Assembly (NCBI GenBank): GCA_016186045.1
Contig: JACPMJ010000005.1
Location: 7,143 to 71,142, forward strand
Length of the DNA stretch: 64,000 nucleotides
Direction: 5' to 3'
Source of the DNA: Candidatus Uhrbacteria bacterium
Lineage (GTDB): Bacteria; Patescibacteriota; Patescibacteriia; JACQRZ01
In this document: positions 38,405 to 58,039 of the stretch, piece by piece
How positions within the stretch are numbered: the stretch's first letter is position 1
Layout of the letters: each line of letters opens with the position of its first letter
Position numbers and translations under genes: made by a program
Notes under the pieces: model-generated
The model's input: only the letters and a program-made list of their open reading frames with translations
The model's database searches: none
What the model was told of the DNA's origin: nothing

Positions 38405-38499
38405 GTCATCCTGAGTGAAGCGAAGGATCCCGTTCGTGATAAAGAGCTGGGATTCCTCTCCGCCAGCTGGCGGATCGGAATGACATACATAGTATACCC
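38405..38499. repeat. A-type palindromic element copy 2
   Basis: GTCATCCTGAGTGAAGCGAAGGATCC...CCGCCAGCTGGCGGATCGGAATGACATACATAGTATACCC; marks the gap-proximal edge of the GC-rich island. Confidence 0.8.
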
Positions 38500-38586
38500 T
38501 ATTTTTATAATCTTCACAAAATAAAAAAAGACTTATTGCATTTTGCGATAGGTCTTTGAAATTTTTTTTGCGGAATTACGGGGATG

Positions 38587-38651
38587 ATCCCTACCTTACC
38601 ATGCCTTGCCCCGCCGGACCAAACCATACCATACCGGACCTCACCGCACCT
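38587..38651. repeat. C-type array: strict 5-nt periodic (NNNCC)x12 tract beginning CCCTACCTTACCATGCCTTGCC
   Basis: CC dinucleotide every 5 nt read directly. Confidence 0.75.
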
Positions 38652-38715
38652 TAGATAAAATATGAGGACGAAATATCTTTCCTAAATATTCCGCCCTCTG
38701 AACTATGAGTGACGC

Positions 38716-39381
38716 CTATGCGGCGCTCTCTTCGGTGTCGCTCTCACTTTCACTTGGCAAGACCAGAGCCTCGAACACGAGATCCTTTTCCTCCTCGTAC
38801 TTGAGGACGTCGAACTTGGTGACGATGAACTTGCCGAATCGCGGCCGATAGTCGCCAATGCCATTGTGTTGGCCTGCGCGGACGAGAATGCTCTGAAGCA
38901 CCTCTACCGGCAAGATGCGTTCGTCCAAAACGGAGAGCGTGAATTCCGTGCACCACTCCTCCAAGCGAGGCCGTGCGCGAAGCACACGGGCGGTACCGAT
39001 ACGTGCCGGACGCTTGTCGATGGCGTAGTCGTAGAGCTTCTCTCCCTTGAGATTCGTGATTCCCGAATACTCTGGAAAGACGCCTACGCCGCCCTTCACC
39101 GGATCCTTGAAGGTCTTCTTTCCCTGCCCCTTCACTTGGAAGGAGCTTGCCGCCTTTACCATGGTTTGGTAGACGTGCTCTCCGGGAACGCAGAGCTGGC
39201 CCTTCTTGTCGCCATTCGCCGGGTCAAGGCGATAGGCTCCCTGCTCCGCCTCCACCTCCGGGAGTGGCGGACCTGTCTTTCTGGACTTGACCGTGCCCTC
39301 CAGCTCGGCCGTGGCCTCCATGGAGAACTTGTGCATGAGAAGAGGGGCAGATCCTTGGATTTTCACTGCGACTTCGTACAT
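38716..39381 (-). CDS. hypothetical protein (221 aa) in GC-rich island, flanked by direct C-type arrays
   Basis: ORF with GC-rich codons; no motifs recognised. Confidence 0.5.
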   Translation of the reverse strand: MYEVAVKIQGSAPLLMHKFSMEATAELEGTVKSRKTGPPLPEVEAEQGAYRLDPANGDKKGQLCVPGEHVYQTMVKAASSFQVKGQGKKTFKDPVKGGVGVFPEYSGITNLKGEKLYDYAIDKRPARIGTARVLRARPRLEEWCTEFTLSVLDERILPVEVLQSILVRAGQHNGIGDYRPRFGKFIVTKFDVLKYEEEKDLVFEALVLPSESESDTEESAA

Positions 39382-39423
39382 CTCTCGTACCTCCTTACCT
39401 TAAATTGAGAGAGTTTTCGAATG

Positions 39424-39512
39424 GGCCCTACCTTACCGTGCCTTACCACGCCTTACCACGCCTAACCTCGCCACGCCCAGCCAGACCGCAACCCCACCAG
39501 ACCAAACCCTAT
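39424..39512. repeat. C-type array: (NNNCC)x13 decaying to NNNAC, begins GCCCTACCTTACCGTGCCTTACC
   Basis: Same orientation and 5' sequence as 38587 copy. Confidence 0.75.
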
Positions 39513-39667
39513 ATGAGTATAAAGCGGGCTGGTAAGCTGATTTCCTTATAAAAAGGATACATTGAGGACGAGCTTAGTATAGAACACATTGTATGGTTTT
39601 GTCAAGGGTCAATACCCTGAAAAAAGAAAAAGGGTTCGACGTATTTGTCGAACCCGTGGGTTTTTGT

Positions 39668-41908
39668 TTAGGAGAGACTGAATACGAGATTATCCAGACT
39701 TCCAAGTAGGAACGGAGTATCACTCAGTGCGCACGCGGCGATTTTTTCGCACGTGAGTGAGGTGAGTGATGCCGTGTATCTTTCTTTGGACGGTACGGGA
39801 CTTTCCTTCAACTCCTGCTGTGCCTCCTCGCACAATGGAAGGTGAATGGCGAGATGCTCGCCGCCAAAGGAGATACCGAAGGCGCTGGCGTCAGAAGGAT
39901 TCAGCCGAATCGCTTCACCCCAATCTTCCCTCCGGGAGAGATGCATACGCATGGGAACGTATATGTCGGAATACGTCGCAAGGACCATGTGGTGATCCAT
40001 GTATGCCGACATCATCTCGAGGATATACGGTTCGAGTACTCCGCCTTCGAGCAAAACACCCGCCTCCTTTACGGTCATTGCTCGGCCGTCGGCGACAATC
40101 GTACTCATGATGATCGGTTTGAGAAGTTCAGTCGCGATAGTGGTCGGGATTCCCAGCATCTTTTTTTGAAGAGAGGGATCCGGCACACACACCGCGGTTG
40201 CGGAATAGTCTACCCGCCGCTCATAGAAGTCTCTCGCGGCATTATCGATCTCCATATCGATACTCTGAAGAAGACGGCCAAATGAACCCTGGAGTGTGGT
40301 ATTGCGCATCAGCGTTTCTACCGCCTCCTGTACCATTTGGCACTCGTTTCTGATGATGATCTCTGGGGCACCCATCTCCATCAGACGACTGACACGATTA
40401 TTCCTACCGATAATGCGTCGATACAGATCGTTGAGATCTGATGTTGCGAAAGTTTTTGCATCGTATCGGACCATCGGTCGGAGGTTGGTGGGCAGAACCG
40501 GGAGATTGCGTATAAGGAAGCGTGAGATATCAACCCCTCGCTCCATGCACACGCTCTCGAGTGCCGCCACTCCCCAGTCGCTTGGTTCGGCATCGTCATC
40601 ATCATCCACTATGGATCGTTTGTAATCGATGACAGCGAGAATGCCCTCGATATCTCCGATGCCGACTTGTGCAATAGTTTGTGCACATTGCAGCTTGAGC
40701 CATGGATGGACAACCGGAATCGCAAGTTTGATATGACCAAACCTGCTATTCGGTGCCAAGTGTGTATCAACTTGGACGCCGCACTTCATGCACGTGATAC
40801 CCTTATGCCTGATGCCCTCGAGTCTGCCACAACTGCACTTCAGATCTCGGCCGTTTCCGAAGATCGCCTCGCAGAAGAGACCTTCGTGTTCTGGCTTCAA
40901 TGTTTTGTAGCTGATGGTCTCTGGACGTTTTACCTCGCCGTGTGACTGCTTGACGATCTGCGCATCGGTTATGCGCATGATATGTAGAGCACCATCTTCA
41001 ACTTTCGTTGAGAAACCGCACCCAACCATCAATGTTGCAAGTCGATGTGCGGAGTGAGTCGGTGGTGTTTCCAATGCGGGGACGGGATTTCGGAGAAGCA
41101 ATGCTTCATATGCTGTTGCTCGCGCGCGTATGCCGCTTGATTTGACCATAGCCATTTCCACAGCGTTCTGTACGTATCCGAGGTGCGCAAACTTTTGGAT
41201 GTTGACCTTTTGTCCTGGATTTGGATGTTCCGATAGGGGCTGTTGAGTGACTAGGCTATACCGTCCAGTCGAACGTCCAGCCAACTTGTCTTCCATGCGC
41301 CGCGTTATTTTCGTGAGTTTCACGGCACGAAATGCAGGACCATCCGAATCCGGAACTGGAAGTCCCTTGAGGATATCAGCGTCTGGATGGACGAGAATAT
41401 CCGTACCAAAGGAAAAGCATCCCTTGGCGCTGAACCCTGCTACGACCAAGGTATGGCCGTGGTTATCATTAAGGACATCGCCGACAGCCAGCTTGCGCTG
41501 GATGAGGAGGTCGATGGTTACGACCTTACCCTTGTTGAAATCCTTGATCTCTACGTTTGTGACCAACGCCTCATCCCGCTGTTTTGCGATCGCGACGATG
41601 GGTTGTGTCTGGGCAAGCGTTGCGGCGAGTACCGAGCGCTGTGCGACTTTCGTACCGACCATCACTACGCCATTCTTATCCAGATTCGCACCCGGAAAGT
41701 ACCCCTCGAAGTCTGCGGGTTTTGCGCTTTTTGCCGGCGCATCGATAGAGAATGGTGACTGGCGCTCCAGAAGCGCGGTGTCAAACCGCCCCTGATCGCG
41801 CACCTCCTCTGATACGATGCAGGCGTTGCCGGTCAGCTGCGGATATGTCCGCAGAAGGTTTTTTCCGGCTATTCGGAGTCTGAGTCTTGATTTCCCATCC
41901 AGGATCAT
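39668..41908 (-). CDS. RNA polymerase clamp-module homolog: RpoB C-terminal-like region fused to RpoC N-terminal-like region, catalytic residues not conserved
   Basis: RSTGRYSLVTQQPL (beta), EVKRPETISYKTLKPEHEGLFCEAIFG, zinc finger CSCG...CMKCG, FATSDLNDLYRRIIGRNNR clamp helices, RVDYSATAV; NADFDGDQM replaced by AYMDHHM. Confidence 0.6.
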   Translation of the reverse strand: MILDGKSRLRLRIAGKNLLRTYPQLTGNACIVSEEVRDQGRFDTALLERQSPFSIDAPAKSAKPADFEGYFPGANLDKNGVVMVGTKVAQRSVLAATLAQTQPIVAIAKQRDEALVTNVEIKDFNKGKVVTIDLLIQRKLAVGDVLNDNHGHTLVVAGFSAKGCFSFGTDILVHPDADILKGLPVPDSDGPAFRAVKLTKITRRMEDKLAGRSTGRYSLVTQQPLSEHPNPGQKVNIQKFAHLGYVQNAVEMAMVKSSGIRARATAYEALLLRNPVPALETPPTHSAHRLATLMVGCGFSTKVEDGALHIMRITDAQIVKQSHGEVKRPETISYKTLKPEHEGLFCEAIFGNGRDLKCSCGRLEGIRHKGITCMKCGVQVDTHLAPNSRFGHIKLAIPVVHPWLKLQCAQTIAQVGIGDIEGILAVIDYKRSIVDDDDDAEPSDWGVAALESVCMERGVDISRFLIRNLPVLPTNLRPMVRYDAKTFATSDLNDLYRRIIGRNNRVSRLMEMGAPEIIIRNECQMVQEAVETLMRNTTLQGSFGRLLQSIDMEIDNAARDFYERRVDYSATAVCVPDPSLQKKMLGIPTTIATELLKPIIMSTIVADGRAMTVKEAGVLLEGGVLEPYILEMMSAYMDHHMVLATYSDIYVPMRMHLSRREDWGEAIRLNPSDASAFGISFGGEHLAIHLPLCEEAQQELKESPVPSKERYTASLTSLTCEKIAACALSDTPFLLGSLDNLVFSLS

Positions 41909-42023
41909 CGGATTCCTCCTTGCATCCCGTCTTCCGACAGGTAAAGCCCGGTTTTCCCGAGCGTGTCAAAGAACCGATAGTAATGTACATGCATGAATTA
42001 TATATTGTCAAGGAGCTGTACTG

Positions 42024-42150
42024 AGGCCGTTGCAAAACTCAGCTAAGCATGTCATTCCCGCGAAGGCGGGAATCCAGTTCTTTTAATTTAAGAAGAATTC
42101 TGGATCCCCGATCAGGTCGGGGATGACAATCGGAGGGTTTTGCAACGGTC
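42024..42150. mobile_element. MITE-like insertion with about 15-bp TIRs (AGGCCGTTGCAAAACTC / GAGGGTTTTGCAACGGTC) carrying a GTCATTCCCGCGAAGGCGGGAATC...GGGGATGACAA palindromic element; flanked by 18-bp direct repeats TGTCAAGGAGCTGTAC(TG/AG) at 42006-42023 and 42158-42175
   Basis: TIRs and direct repeats read directly. Confidence 0.7.
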
Positions 42151-42195
42151 TCTGTACTGTCAAGGAGCTGTACAGCGCGAGTACATAGGTAACAC

Positions 42196-42672
42196 TTACT
42201 TGTCGCCAAAGCGCTTTTTATATCGCGCAGTAATCTCATCCACGAGATACTTTAAGAAAGTATCTTCTCTTACCGTTTTTAGTACCGGCTCCTCGAGAAT
42301 ATCGAGCAGAAATACTCCTGAGGCGACGAGTGTGAAGCAGATGCCGCATTCATCCGCATGCATGTCTCTCGGCTTTCCTGTACTTACGGCGATCGCCGTC
42401 CGAAGAATTTGTACGTCGCTGAAATGCGGATTTTCTCCGACCGATCGGATTCCGATCGAACGAAGAATCATGATCATCATCTCCTCACCCATCTGATTTT
42501 TCTTCACATTTCCTCCTTCGAGAATTCTTTTTAATCCCATCCATGTGCGCACACAGATATATGGATTAGCCAAAAATCCTCTCTTCAGGAAATCTACTAT
42601 ACATAGTAGTGATTTCCTGGAGAGAAGGCGCGAAGGTTTCTCTATGTCCTTCGCGCAAATATTCCTGAGCAC
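42196..42672 (-). CDS. hypothetical small protein (158 aa; 5' end overlaps hairpin repeats, true start may be internal)
   Basis: ORF only. Confidence 0.3.
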   Translation of the reverse strand: MLRNICAKDIEKPSRLLSRKSLLCIVDFLKRGFLANPYICVRTWMGLKRILEGGNVKKNQMGEEMMIMILRSIGIRSVGENPHFSDVQILRTAIAVSTGKPRDMHADECGICFTLVASGVFLLDILEEPVLKTVREDTFLKYLVDEITARYKKRFGDK

Positions 42673-42701
42673 CTATCAGTCAAGAACTACTCGTTCTCCT
42701 A

Positions 42702-44165
42702 CTATGGCACGAGGCGCTTGTAGCGACGATTGATATATCGCCGCATGAATCCGGAAACTTGCGCCTCCGCATGGAACTTAGCGTGCCCGATACTCATACG
42801 ACGCCCATCACTGACGAAGCAGTTCAGGAAGTCCTGATCCGTCATCGTGGTAACCACCTTGAGTCGCTCATCGTCAAGGATTGCCTTGAATTCTGGCACG
42901 AGTGCGAGTCGTGACGGAATTTTCAGGTCATTCCCAAGATCAACGGCGTTCCCGAATAGTTTATTGGGATCTACTCTACCGAGTCGCGCGGCCATGGCTC
43001 TGAAGTGAGTCATAATCTGACTCCTGTAGCGAGTCTTATACGGCTCTTGCACGAATACCGCCTCGGGCACGTGGCGATAGTCATGGATGAAAGCAGCATG
43101 CGCCAGCGCATTAGCGATAACAGTATCTGCTGTCGCCAACTCGCGAGCCACAAGCTCCTCCATTCGCCCCGTGAATTCATTCGGAAAGAGATACACAAGA
43201 CGCTGAAATGTTTTGCGATCGTCCCCTTTTGGCACACCCGGAAGAGCATCGAAGAAAGCGTTGATGATATCCCTCCTCGTCTCTTCGTCATAGTCGAGGT
43301 ACCAGCACCGCTGGCTGACGACGCTGATATCCCCGCTCCAATAGAGGTACCGTCGCGACGGAACCTCCATGCCACGCAGGAGCTCCTCCACGATCAGATA
43401 GATCAGCTGATCGCCCTCCAAGATACGATTCTTTTGGGCTTCGTTCTGGAAAGCGAAATGCCGACTTGCATAATCGATCACCTCTCGAATGAGCGCTGGC
43501 TCGATCCGTCCATCCGATGTGAATGCCTTGGACCGGAACTCGATCACGTCGCGAATGTCCGCAACTGGAATAGGAATGAACCCGACGTGTCCGTCCCGCC
43601 GTTTCTCCCGTTGGGCGATCGCGGCAGCCGCTTGCTTCCGACGAAGTGACCCTGTGGCGTACTGGACAATGAAATCAACCACCGGAAAGGACCGCTCGAT
43701 CTGAACGGGTTCCGTCCTATTCTCGTTGACAGGAAGGTCAATCACTGTGCGTCCGAGGCACGCCGCCGAGAAAATCGGCGGGATGCCAGCCGCTCTGAAG
43801 TCGCGTGCGCGCTGTTCGATCTTGTCTAGCAGCGCTGACGATGCCATCTGTTCACCAGCTAAAACGAGTTTTAGGTGATCGTAATGTGGGCCGTAAAAAT
43901 ATCCCTCACACATCACGAGAAAGCGCCGCGCTCGCTGACACGCAGATTCATATTCCCGTAAGTCAACGAATGTATATACATTGTCTCGCTTACGGTAGAG
44001 GCGCTTGATACCCGCCTGATTGAATACCTCTTCAGAGATACTTCGAACACTTAGGTTACCAGCAAGCTGGCTTATCTGAGCTGCCAATTGAGAAGTGCTC
44101 CGGGCCATTGCTGGCCTCCTTTCAAATTTCAATGAAATTTCAATGAACTTTCCCCTCACCTTCAA
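42702..44165 (-). CDS. hypothetical protein (487 aa), GC-rich island
   Basis: ORF only; no motif recognised. Confidence 0.5.
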   Translation of the reverse strand: MKVRGKFIEISLKFERRPAMARSTSQLAAQISQLAGNLSVRSISEEVFNQAGIKRLYRKRDNVYTFVDLREYESACQRARRFLVMCEGYFYGPHYDHLKLVLAGEQMASSALLDKIEQRARDFRAAGIPPIFSAACLGRTVIDLPVNENRTEPVQIERSFPVVDFIVQYATGSLRRKQAAAAIAQREKRRDGHVGFIPIPVADIRDVIEFRSKAFTSDGRIEPALIREVIDYASRHFAFQNEAQKNRILEGDQLIYLIVEELLRGMEVPSRRYLYWSGDISVVSQRCWYLDYDEETRRDIINAFFDALPGVPKGDDRKTFQRLVYLFPNEFTGRMEELVARELATADTVIANALAHAAFIHDYRHVPEAVFVQEPYKTRYRSQIMTHFRAMAARLGRVDPNKLFGNAVDLGNDLKIPSRLALVPEFKAILDDERLKVVTTMTDQDFLNCFVSDGRRMSIGHAKFHAEAQVSGFMRRYINRRYKRLVP

Positions 44166-44359
44166 AACACCACTAATTGATGTCCTGAAGAGAAAGTGGG
44201 AGCAAATCAGTACGAATACTATCTACTCCCAAATTACTTCAACCCCGTATCTTTTCACGCGCCGGCGATTATCCCGGCAAACTTCGCGACGGCCCCTTCG
44301 ACAAGGACGCTCGTCACCTCCTCGTCCATGCAGTCATGAATATACTCCCTTCTTCTTGG

Positions 44360-45055
44360 CTATACTGACGTTGGAACGTAAAACTCAAGAATGTCGATAG
44401 TTCGTTCGATGCCGTCTCGTATTGTGTCTATCATGGAGACAAGTTCCTCTATAGATCGATACGCGAGCGGTGGTGCTTCTGGAAGAACCAGCGACGGTTC
44501 GCTCGACCCTTGTCCGAAGAGCTGTGAGATAATCCTCCTACCATTACTTGGTAGGGTACGCGCCTCTCGAAGTTGATTCTCGTACTCCCACCGAAGATCC
44601 CGGATCAAATTTCTGTACTCAATACGAGCCAGATCCTCTACCCAGACTTTATCCTCCTTAACCTCAATGATCATCTCACCTTTTAGACGTTCTGGCCCGA
44701 GCAGATATCTATCACTCTCTTTGTCATACCGACAACCCACATAATTTGCTATGGAGCCTAAGTATAGAGCTCTATGGCCTGCCCAACGAATCCGTATGAC
44801 GGTTCTGCTAAAAGCAATGTAGAGTGATCCCTCCATATTGTCTCCTTGGGCATGAAAGAGTTGACCACGTTCATGAACGATCCCCATGTTGGGGTTTACC
44901 TTATGTCCCATCCTCCAATGTCCAACGGAAACAAGACCGCCAATCTTTTGGAGTTTCTTGGTCTCCGAGAGTACATCGAGTACATGCATCAGCTCGTTAT
45001 ACTTTTCAGTGAGATTACTCACAGACTCCTGAACGGCCACGTTACAAATTTCCAT
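44360..45055 (-). CDS. hypothetical protein (231 aa), GC-rich island; His-rich patch GHWRMGHKVNPNMGIVHERGQLFH
   Basis: ORF only. Confidence 0.45.
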   Translation of the reverse strand: MEICNVAVQESVSNLTEKYNELMHVLDVLSETKKLQKIGGLVSVGHWRMGHKVNPNMGIVHERGQLFHAQGDNMEGSLYIAFSRTVIRIRWAGHRALYLGSIANYVGCRYDKESDRYLLGPERLKGEMIIEVKEDKVWVEDLARIEYRNLIRDLRWEYENQLREARTLPSNGRRIISQLFGQGSSEPSLVLPEAPPLAYRSIEELVSMIDTIRDGIERTIDILEFYVPTSV

Positions 45056-45420: not shown

Positions 45421-46185
45421 ATGTATCAAACATTACTCACACAACTCGGACTCGCAGAAAAAGAGGCGACCATCTATGAAACGCTCGTAGAAAAGGGCTC
45501 ATTGACTGCTGGACGCCTACTGAAAGAACTTCCCTACAAACGAGGAGATATGTATTACCTTCTTTCACGATTAAAGGAAAAGGGATTAGTGACAGATGTC
45601 CTTTCCAAAAAGGGAGTTGCAGTATTTACAGCTGCGAATCCCACAACTCTTGAATCACTCGCAGAAAAAGTTCTTGAAAAGGCTCAGCAGATAAAAACAG
45701 GTCTGGATGCCGCACTTCCAAACCTGAAATCTCTATACAATCTCGCAATGGAGAAACCTGGCATGCGCTTCTATGAAGGTGAGGCGGGAATATGGAAACT
45801 ACTCAATGACACTCTTGACTCAAAAACCGAACTTCTCTTTTTGGGTGATCACGACGCAATTAACACTCATATTCCGACACTCAATAAAGATTATGTACTT
45901 AAAAGAAAAAAACGACACATCAAAAAGCGTCTTATCCAATTTGATACGCCATCCGCTCGCGCATTTGCACGTACCGGTGATGAATTCACCGAGGTTCGAC
46001 TTATTGCCACGGATGCGTCAAACATCCGAAGTTTCATGCATATCTATGATAACAAGGTATCGTATGTAACGTTTTTGGAAACCGCATTCATCGGCGTTCT
46101 TATTGAAGATCCAATGTTCTATCAACTTCAACGAGTAATGTTTGAATATATGTGGAAAACTGCCACACGTTTTACGAATTCCTAA
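45421..46185 (+). CDS. TrmB-family transcriptional regulator
   Basis: N-terminal winged HTH LGLAEKEATIYETLVEKGSLTAGRLLKELPYKRGDMYYLLSRLKEKGLV. Confidence 0.7.
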   Translation: MYQTLLTQLGLAEKEATIYETLVEKGSLTAGRLLKELPYKRGDMYYLLSRLKEKGLVTDVLSKKGVAVFTAANPTTLESLAEKVLEKAQQIKTGLDAALPNLKSLYNLAMEKPGMRFYEGEAGIWKLLNDTLDSKTELLFLGDHDAINTHIPTLNKDYVLKRKKRHIKKRLIQFDTPSARAFARTGDEFTEVRLIATDASNIRSFMHIYDNKVSYVTFLETAFIGVLIEDPMFYQLQRVMFEYMWKTATRFTNS

Positions 46186-50625: not shown

Positions 50626-50974
50626 ACACTGGAACACTTGTGATATAGTTTCTCGTAGCGAAATGATGATTTTTTGAGCGAAAACAATGAAGCGTGAGGA
50701 GGTGAATAGAAGCCTATTCATTGACGAGCGGTGAATTGTTTGCAGCCAAAAAAGCATCATTGCAGTAGAGAGGGCTGTATCACAAGTGTTCCAAAGGGCA
50801 TGAGAGATGAGTAAATAAACGATGGGATGAGTATATCATATCCTCAAAAACATTCAAGCCCCTTGATAAATTGTCTTATTCTTTGTATACTTTTGACATT
50901 TTTTATTCCATCTTGACATGAAAAACATTTTTTGACATACTTATTGAAATAGTTTCACTTATTACTCTCTTTAT

Positions 50975-57700: not shown

Positions 57701-57774
57701 ACATTACAAATATAGCACATTCCAACCCCCTTGACAAAATAAGGAACGTATGGTTTGCTATACGTGCTTTCTGC

Positions 57775-57867
57775 GGTGTGGTGTGACGTAGTCGTGCAAG
57801 ACGGGGTGGGGTTGGGTCTGGCTAGGTATGGTTTGGCTAGGCGAGGCGAGGCACGGTAAGGTAGGGC
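57775..57867. repeat. C-type array in inverse orientation ((GGNNN)n ending ...GGCACGGTAAGGTAGGGC)
   Basis: Reverse complement begins GCCCTACCTTACCGTGCC like the 39424 copy. Confidence 0.75.
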
Positions 57868-57956
57868 TTATTCAAAGGAATGAGCTCTTTTTAATTTGAC
57901 GAAAAATAGGTGTTTGATAAGGTAAAAGCGGTGAAAAACAGAATCGTCTAAGAACT

Positions 57957-58029
57957 GTCATCCTCGGGCTTGACCCGAGGATCCAGAGTTCATAGATCCC
58001 GGATCAGCGGAGGCGGATTGGGATGACAA
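57957..58029. repeat. palindromic family member (GTCATCCTCGGGCTTGACCCGAGGATCC...GCGGAGGCGGATTGGGATGAC)
   Basis: Termini GTCATCC / GGATGAC, internal hairpin CCTCGGGCTTGACCCGAGG. Confidence 0.7.
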
Positions 58030-58039
58030 TTTCATACGT

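Follow-up and report, generated by a model that had tools for sequence, protein, structure and literature searches.

VIPR (Viral Interference Programmable Repeat) was introduced in two 2026 preprints as a CRISPR-like system of RNA-guided DNA silencing (bioRxiv 10.64898/2026.04.26.720920, 10.64898/2026.04.26.720927). Its guides, the vrRNAs, are transcripts of ~100 nt comprised of 9-16 GGY/NN (YNNGG) units and an invariable structured 3' tail, and their genes flank vipr upstream and downstream on its sense strand (bioRxiv 10.64898/2026.04.26.720920). Vipr is a minimal RAMP protein of which one protomer sits on each vrRNA unit with the GGY sequestered; the vrRNAs are expressed, processed, and co-purified with it. 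The NN dinucleotides pair with double-stranded DNA on either strand, with one target base skipped per unit and without a PAM, and binding produces an R-loop triplex and silences transcription (both bioRxiv 10.64898/2026.04.26.720920, 10.64898/2026.04.26.720927). Published systems are without self-targets, and an accessory vap gene, used to define types (I-VII), is 'typically' found beside vipr, with stand-alone genes also described; the preprint text, supplements apart, does not mention CPR hosts (bioRxiv 10.64898/2026.04.26.720920).

In this study, a locus of Candidatus Uhrbacteria was compared with these systems using the window (i.e., the whole 64,000-nucleotide stretch of DNA that was analysed) and related contigs. 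The locus is in all likelihood a chromosomal VIPR system of this CPR bacterium, with three pentanucleotide tracts as its vrRNA genes. The kind of system is known; the example in a CPR bacterium is new. It is an apparently intact VIPR, with no vap gene found, placed in the core chromosome of its host. CPR bacteria have tiny genomes with few known defence systems, and to our knowledge their lineages are largely devoid of CRISPR-Cas. Additionally, the case demonstrates that a VIPR locus can be spotted from raw sequence alone, with (GGYNN)≥4GG serving as a simple detector.

Sequence and placement of the tracts

Across the 64-kb window, a period-5 dinucleotide scan recovered exactly three CC/GG tracts, and in each of them 13/13 dinucleotides were in phase (Table 1; CC on the plus strand in the cores of A and B, GG on the plus strand in the core of C), where block shuffles of the window gave an expectation of 0.05 tracts with at least six in-phase matches. 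The strict pattern of at least four GGYNN units followed by GG returned the same three sites and no others, with a shuffle expectation of 0.005 per 64 kb. All three tracts consist of exactly 12 GGYNN units plus GG and, read in the GG orientation, every unit carries a pyrimidine at its third base (3/3 tracts), a feature that the sequence-only reading of this DNA had overlooked. The tracts were otherwise largely as that reading had described them: three non-coding stretches with the third copy inverted, and neither a CRISPR array nor an ordinary tandem repeat, as no CRISPR-type repeats occur at the locus and the units are not mutual copies. Its reported decay to NNNAC at 39488-39512 proved to be four more GGYNN units (GGTTT GGTCT GGTGG GGTTG), offset by 1 base from the core of B. 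At 57775-57804, two good and four degenerate units stand in phase with the main tract C.

The common 3' end of 3/3 tracts is GGTAAGGTAGGG, and sharing among the copies is restricted to the last 12-17 nt; in the remainder, GG is kept and NN is different. The last three units (GGCAY GGTAA GGTAG GG) are constant in this Uhrbacteria clade and may serve as a handle. Tracts A and B bracket the 221-aa ORF on its own sense strand, with A lying 65 nt downstream of vipr and B 43 nt upstream, after the promoter and ahead of the vipr ribosome-binding site, a position comparable to that of SUSP1 vrRNA1. Tract C, on the other strand, is 18.4 kb away from vipr, and all three tracts are intergenic.

Table 1. 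Putative features of the vipr locus and of the orphan tract in the window
Feature	Position	Strand	Signals or content
bidirectional terminator hairpin	39632-39655	both	divides operon promoter from upstream 746-aa ORF
promoter of vrRNA-vipr operon	39576-39605	-	TTGACA, 18-nt spacer, TATACT; 11/12 consensus matches (promoter scan)
vrRNA B, upstream guide in vipr leader	39424-39512, core 39426-39487	-	12 GGYNN units + GG; NN code CT TG GT GA TA GT AA GT AA AC AA AG
vipr, 221-aa RAMP protein	38716-39381	-	homology to SUSP1 Vipr, predicted fold
stable hairpin between vipr stop codon and vrRNA A	38664-38698	-	-19.6 kcal/mol, z -5.0
vrRNA A, downstream guide	38589-38650	-	12 GGYNN units + GG; NN code GC GA CC AT AT TT CC GG AA AT AA AG
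3' tail of vrRNA A + terminator	38527-38588	-	tail GGGATCATCCCC..CCGCAAAAAAAA, then hairpin + T-run 38527-38557
gap promoter	38491-38519	-	
vrRNA C, orphan guide	57775-57866, core 57805-57866	+	12 GGYNN units + GG; NN code GG TG CT TA AT TT TA GA GA AC AA AG
vrRNA C tail hairpin	57863-57893	+	pairs last repeat units AGGGCUUAUUC/GAAUGAGCUCU, then UUUUU; -15.3 kcal/mol, z -2.7

The predicted promoter and terminator signals frame the tracts, which show the architecture and placement of vrRNA genes. Along the minus strand, the order is terminator (39655-39632), promoter, B, ribosome-binding site, vipr, hairpin (38698-38664), A, terminator (38557-38527), and gap promoter, such that the last terminator ends the operon ahead of gap. 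vrRNA B runs into the vipr leader, where the ribosome-binding site AAGGAGG precedes the ATG at 39381 by 8 nt. A CCCCTTGACAAA...TATACT promoter also precedes vipr in two related Uhrbacteria contigs (L004 and L001), and L004 carries a similar hairpin at the position equivalent to 38664-38698; the hairpin in the window could be an attenuator or a processing site.

The tail of vrRNA A is conserved in sequence, with an unconvincing fold (z -1.1). Its motif ATCAY..TCC..CCGCAAAAAAA is common to the L004 tract downstream of vipr and to a second L004 tract (2827-2898); the L001 tract downstream of vipr has only the start of the motif (ATCAC) in common with vrRNA A. The terminator-like hairpin after vrRNA C recurs after two L001 tracts, with a one-sided change (T.G -> T-A) that preserves the pair, and it is the predicted intrinsic terminator and 3' tail of this guide. 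A canonical promoter for vrRNA C was not found by the promoter scan. The candidate, a CCCCCTTGACAAAA motif at 57726-57739 with TATACG at 57759-57764, is uncertain because the two are spaced by 22 nt.

Relation of the 221-aa protein to SUSP1 Vipr and to CRISPR-Cas

A profile built from 42 family members matched PDB 36pp_D ('SUSP1 Vipr protein') over its full length (positions 1-184, E 1.6e-24), and the single 221-aa sequence matched PDB 36pp with E 3.4e-11. Direct alignment to SUSP1 Vipr gave 99.3% in hhalign (E 2e-20, 179 aligned columns, 27% identity), and the protein also matched Phrog_4652 (E 2.6e-19). It had no Pfam or PADLOC family match, and its entry in Candidatus Uhrbacteria (HYW94_00845) reads 'hypothetical protein'. 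The AF2 model (pLDDT 87, pTM 0.79) was compared with the PDB by Foldseek, and RAMP subunits of the Csm3/Cas7 type, from type III and type VII complexes, made up the top ~40 matches (TM 0.45-0.5, E about 1e-5). As modelled, the protein is a RAMP fold of the Cas7/Csm3 type with an RRM core, a G-loop, and a thumb; across the family, the G-loop GIGDYRPRFG shows little or no variation.

In the cryo-EM structure of SUSP1 Vipr, GGY is read by H17, R138, D177, W178, and R179 (bioRxiv 10.64898/2026.04.26.720927). The aligned residues in the 221-aa protein are H17, R137, D177, Y178, and R179, with the aromatic kept at 178, and four of these five (R137, D177, Y178, R179) are invariant among the 42 homologs. 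Combined, the homology and the model identify the gene as vipr, a homolog of the Vipr gene of phage SUSP1, with a product predicted to polymerise on GGYNN repeats.

The closest described system, the type II VIPR of Escherichia phage SUSP1 (PDB 36pp), shares with this locus a homologous Vipr with equivalent GGY-reading residues and vrRNAs of 12-16 GGYNN units ending in GG, placed on the vipr strand with one ahead of the gene in its operon and at least one behind it. In both systems GGY is conserved and NN is hypervariable, and, like the published systems, this locus showed no self-target within the 64-kb window. The two nevertheless differ in several respects. Here the genes stand among core genes of a CPR chromosome rather than in a phage, the two Vipr proteins are only 27% identical, the C-terminus of the Uhrbacteria Vipr bears an acidic extension (about 30 aa), and an orphan tract lies ~18 kb away, with more orphans in relatives. 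In place of the pseudoknot tail of the SUSP1 vrRNAs, C is followed by a hairpin terminator and A by an ATCAY..CCGCA7 motif, and no SUSP1-like pseudoknot tail was seen after the A, B, or C tracts. Additionally, vap1 directly follows vipr in SUSP1, whereas no vap accessory gene was found beside vipr here; no ORF lies between B, vipr, A, and the terminator, and no vap gene was found in the relatives' loci. This lack is compatible with membership in the VIPR family because vap is described as 'typically' present and stand-alone genes are on record.

The likeness to the backbone of Class 1 CRISPR-Cas complexes (Cas7/Csm3/Cmr4 on crRNA) extends to the RAMP/RRM fold with G-loop and thumb and to a protein that polymerises along a guide RNA, flipping bases at a fixed period. 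The period is, however, 5 nt with three bases sequestered in VIPR, as compared to 6 nt with one base flipped in CRISPR, and the guide information of VIPR is non-contiguous, encoded in separate small genes or tract series instead of repeat-spacer arrays. No CRISPR repeats, cas1/cas2, or other cas genes were found in the window, where the 221-aa protein is the sole RAMP, and Rfam at its gathering threshold reported a tRNA only.

Conservation in relatives and linkage of tracts to Vipr homologs

The gene order tsf..vipr-gap-pgk-eno is conserved in three Uhrbacteria lineages (relatives at 89% and 84% protein identity, with a DNA identity of about 80.6%), and in L001 only tsf and gap adjoin vipr. 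In the window, the neighbours of vipr are gap and, beyond a terminator, the lineage-specific 746-aa RNAP-like ORF. The insertion lies on the right-hand side of tract B and reaches as far as tsf (39.66-48.9 kb); its GC-rich left part holds a fragment in which RNA polymerase beta and beta' are fused. The sequence-only reading had taken vipr for the first gene of an island, probably because the gene is GC-rich relative to its genome; it exceeds its genome by 5-14 points in every lineage examined (13 points here). Judging from gene order, vipr is a chromosomal gene among core genes and not an island gene.

GGYNN tracts were found in L001 and L004 at orthologous places and in other spacers, with six tracts in 20 kb of L001. 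Tracts with 13 GG orthologous to A stand at the same place in both contigs, with GG kept and NN scrambled, and L001 345-406, adjoining the GHL15 gene, is the ortholog of tract C. Between orthologous tracts, identity is 85-96% at GG and 22-39% at NN (first nine units), with flanking genes at about 80.6%; BLAST could align only the tract 3' end and the tail. The occupancy of particular sites also varies. In the vipr leader, the window has 4+13 units, L001 a degenerate tract, and L004 none with the promoter kept; behind the orthologous rpmE promoter, the window has no tract, L001 one, and L004 two, between the promoter and rpmE. A 285-aa ORF of L001, absent from the window and without a Pfam match, is bracketed by two tracts.

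CPR homologs at 48-59% identity, one of them in a Moranbacteria genome, each have same-strand tracts after the gene. The tracts form series in gene-free stretches (16 in L127, 12 in L129, and about 5 in L130), with conserved 50-60-nt linkers from one tract to the next, and internal promoters and terminators occur within the L127 series. The linker hairpin of L127 is conserved, but compensatory double changes were seen in 0/13 of its pairs; Rfam at E <= 1 gave no match in this series, and hence no sign of known ribozymes such as the hammerhead between the tracts.

Searching metagenomes with nothing but the DNA pattern yielded 120 loci (median 2.8 kb), and a Vipr homolog was encoded in 43/120. 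Within these 43 loci, 237/238 tracts lie on the vipr strand, with 194 downstream and 41 upstream of the gene. In a looser (GGYNN)8GG scan of genome contigs, a Vipr homolog was encoded in 5/120 loci among the matches listed, which were mostly from high-GC genomes. As a positive control, the tract detector recovered one upstream and three downstream tracts in phage SUSP1, as published. The Vipr family and GGYNN tracts are linked across distant genomes. The proposed tie between the tracts and the 221-aa gene is borne out, and the motif is now of a known type, that of the vrRNAs of VIPR systems (bioRxiv 10.64898/2026.04.26.720920).

Alternative readings, proposed mechanism, and targets

The sequence-only reading had proposed that the tracts are att-type direct repeats, i.e., recombination sites left by island insertion of the 221-aa gene, with the inverted third copy marking the far end. 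Two direct copies do bracket the gene with a third, inverted one 18 kb off, the gene exceeds its genome by 13 GC points, and the L001 ORF bracketed by two tracts would fit as well. Weighed against the synteny of vipr in three lineages, this origin is very improbable: the copies share their last 12-17 nt only, with NN differing and GG kept elsewhere, and the interval between A and C contains the core genes tsf, rpsB, prfA, and ftsW. The att reading also fails the check that the sequence-only reading had set for it: orthologous loci keep the gene with or without an upstream tract (L004 has none), and tracts occur far from it. Numerous other spacers contain them, and distant homologs are followed by long tandem series.

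Could the tracts be independent of the 221-aa protein, as a DNA-level binding or curvature array, RNA G-quadruplexes (GG N3 GG...), a TRAP-like ring site, or a decaying microsatellite? The regular spacing of GG could in principle give two-tier G-quadruplexes, and the 5-nt period resembles that of (G/U)AG-N2-3, the repeat recognised by TRAP, a protein oligomer that likewise reads a conserved triplet about every 5 nt in leader RNA. Neither a G-quadruplex nor a microsatellite, however, needs a pyrimidine at every third base, and the units are not copies of each other, with length fixed at 12 units plus GG in 3/3 tracts. The contrast between conserved GG and scrambled NN in orthologous tracts likewise speaks against the decaying pentanucleotide microsatellite suggested earlier. 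No TRAP homolog is present here, the motif is GGY and not (G/U)AG, and the variable bases are predicted to carry targeting information. With the near-absolute strand and neighbourhood linkage to Vipr homologs, and with GGY directly accounted for by the solved Vipr-vrRNA structure (bioRxiv 10.64898/2026.04.26.720927), a protein-independent origin has hardly any probability left. The suggestion of a protein-binding array survives for RNA, as a guide on which the 221-aa protein is predicted to form a filament, and falls for DNA phased by half helical turns. Mobile-element terminal inverted repeats, telomere-like repeats, a Rho or terminator element, a TRAP-like ring on a 13-unit RNA, and RNA G-quadruplexes had been candidates until the match to PDB 36pp, on which they were dropped.

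A further alternative accepts the VIPR ancestry and proposes that the locus has lost its role in defence and been domesticated, either to control host genes or to exert feedback on the vipr mRNA. Vipr would then coat vrRNA B in its own leader, and orphan tracts behind housekeeping promoters would tie transcripts to Vipr levels or guide the repression of host genes. The fixation of vipr among core genes in three lineages with no vap gene or prophage attached, the position of vrRNA B inside the vipr 5' leader, the L001 and L004 tracts between the rpmE promoter and rpmE, and the failure to find a phage target with exact patterns in IMG/VR are all consistent with this proposal. It is nonetheless improbable, as a self-target above chance is absent in the 64 kb and in related loci, tract presence varies among relatives, and an upstream vrRNA in the vipr operon is the SUSP1 arrangement too. 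The scrambling of NN codes between close relatives is more readily explained by an arms race than by conserved regulation of the host.

A VIPR system with vrRNA guides remains the preferred reading, and its operation here can be proposed by analogy with the published systems. One promoter (39605-39576, minus strand) would drive a single transcript through vrRNA B, vipr, and vrRNA A to the terminator at 38557-38527, and vrRNA C would be a separate small transcript ending at its own hairpin terminator. The transcripts would be trimmed to RNAs of roughly 70-100 nt, on each of which Vipr would polymerise, every GGYNN unit (about 12 here) being occupied by one protomer. Each GGY would be flipped out and locked via H17, R137, D177, Y178, and R179, such that 12 NN dinucleotides are presented. 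The filament would bind about 36 bp of double-stranded DNA that matches the NN code when one base is skipped in each unit (nNNnNN...), on either strand and without a PAM, and the resulting R-loop triplex would block transcription. The targets are likely to be phages or other mobile elements of the host.

More tentatively, it is possible that in Uhrbacteria, and perhaps in the CPR more widely, VIPR has become a host-domesticated, vap-less guide system with scattered single vrRNA cassettes behind housekeeping promoters. Single cassettes occur in the vipr leader, in the rpmE leader, and beside the GHL15 gene, and their presence differs between genomes that are about 20% diverged. If this wider reading holds, some mechanism would create, move, or reprogram vrRNA cassettes, because cassettes are gained or lost and NN is rewritten with the GGY frame and the length of 12 units plus GG kept. 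Such a mechanism would bear on guide acquisition in VIPR, for which the available text of the preprints gives no mechanism (bioRxiv 10.64898/2026.04.26.720920, 10.64898/2026.04.26.720927). The orphan cassettes that vary among close relatives, together with their scrambled NN, represent a natural data set on the origin and turnover of vrRNA guides.

Within the window, the best sites for the three guides under the 1-nt-skip rule matched 16-17/24 positions, with means of 16.3-16.7 in shuffled-order controls, and no self-target above chance was found for guides A, B, or C. A search of IMG/VR restricted to exact 10-NN and 9-NN patterns gave no match. When 42 CPR guides were compared with 206 kb of CPR loci, none reached 80%, and a 1-nt skip performed no better than a skip of 0 or 2. 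The three 12-NN codes are explicit predictions of 36-bp targets, and the corresponding gapped target-query patterns are nGCnGAnCCnATnATnTTnCCnGGnAAnATnAAnAG for guide A, nCTnTGnGTnGAnTAnGTnAAnGTnAAnACnAAnAG for guide B, and nGGnTGnCTnTAnATnTTnTAnGAnGAnACnAAnAG for guide C.

Tract turnover at orthologous loci

Within the related Uhrbacteria contig L001, a 285-aa ORF is arranged as promoter, tract, gene, tract, the same layout as that of vipr, and in the window a single vrRNA tract, the orphan tract C, is left at the corresponding place. Additionally, the promoter of rpmE (encoding L31), with the motif 'attcaag(a)cccc(c)ttga.aaa', is orthologous in the window, L001 and a second related Uhrbacteria contig, L004. 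This promoter is trailed by one (L001), two (L004) or no (window) tracts; orphan guide cassettes are thus gained and lost directly behind the promoters of housekeeping genes.

Features at vipr loci and vrRNA tracts
Feature	Locus	Positions	Strand	Remark
285-aa ORF	L001	407-1264 (within 345-1377)		no Pfam match; missing from window
Tracts behind rpmE promoter	L001	8052-8128		one vrRNA tract
Tracts behind rpmE promoter	L004	2827-3004		two vrRNA tracts
Tracts behind rpmE promoter	window	50840-50900		zero vrRNA tracts
GC-rich block, four ORFs	window	39668-45055	-	missing from orthologous loci L001 and L004
TrmB-family winged-helix gene	window	45421-46185	+	variable region near vipr
TrmB paralogs	L130	9050-9790 and 11294-12019		flank vipr and its tracts on both sides
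REP-like palindrome (GTCATCC...GGATGAC)	window	~38405-38480		spacer adjoining tract A
REP-like palindrome (GTCATCC...GGATGAC)	window	~57957-58030		spacer adjoining tract C

Composition and C-terminus of Vipr

The vipr gene is GC-rich despite its syntenic position; its GC content exceeds that of the host genome by 5-14 points in every lineage (the window, L001, L004, and the more distant CPR contigs L127 and L130), with values of 0.583 for the gene and 0.456 for the genome in the case of the window. The Uhrbacteria Vipr ends in an acidic extension of ~30 aa (window 38716-38810; ..EEEKDLVFEALVLPSESESDTEESAA), which is modeled with low confidence in the predicted structure and is lacking in SUSP1 Vipr and the other homologs.

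Neighborhood of vipr and its tracts

The GC-rich block adjoining the VIPR operon is probably inserted DNA of foreign or mobile origin. Its 746-aa ORF fuses the C-terminal part of RNA polymerase beta to an N-terminal fragment of beta' (Pfam domains Rpb2_6, Rpb1_1 and Rpb1_2), matches phrog_25354 (E 8e-79), and is 34-42% identical to rpoC in phage-collection records. The block is not targeted by the guides of the window. The TrmB paralogs of the Moranbacteria locus (L130) are ~27% identical to the TrmB-family gene of the window; such genes near vipr could be DNA-binding partners resembling vap, the usual accessory gene, or simply members of a common CPR paralog family.

In other metagenomic contigs, vipr is followed by a long series of 12-33 vrRNA tracts (L127 10640-13070; L129 10662-11970; L245). 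The linkers between the L127 tracts are conserved and contain two predicted hairpins. TTGACA promoters and intrinsic terminators within the series break it up into separate units, and no ribozyme was detected in it by Rfam. In the window, each REP-like element lies between the terminator of its tract and the next gene.
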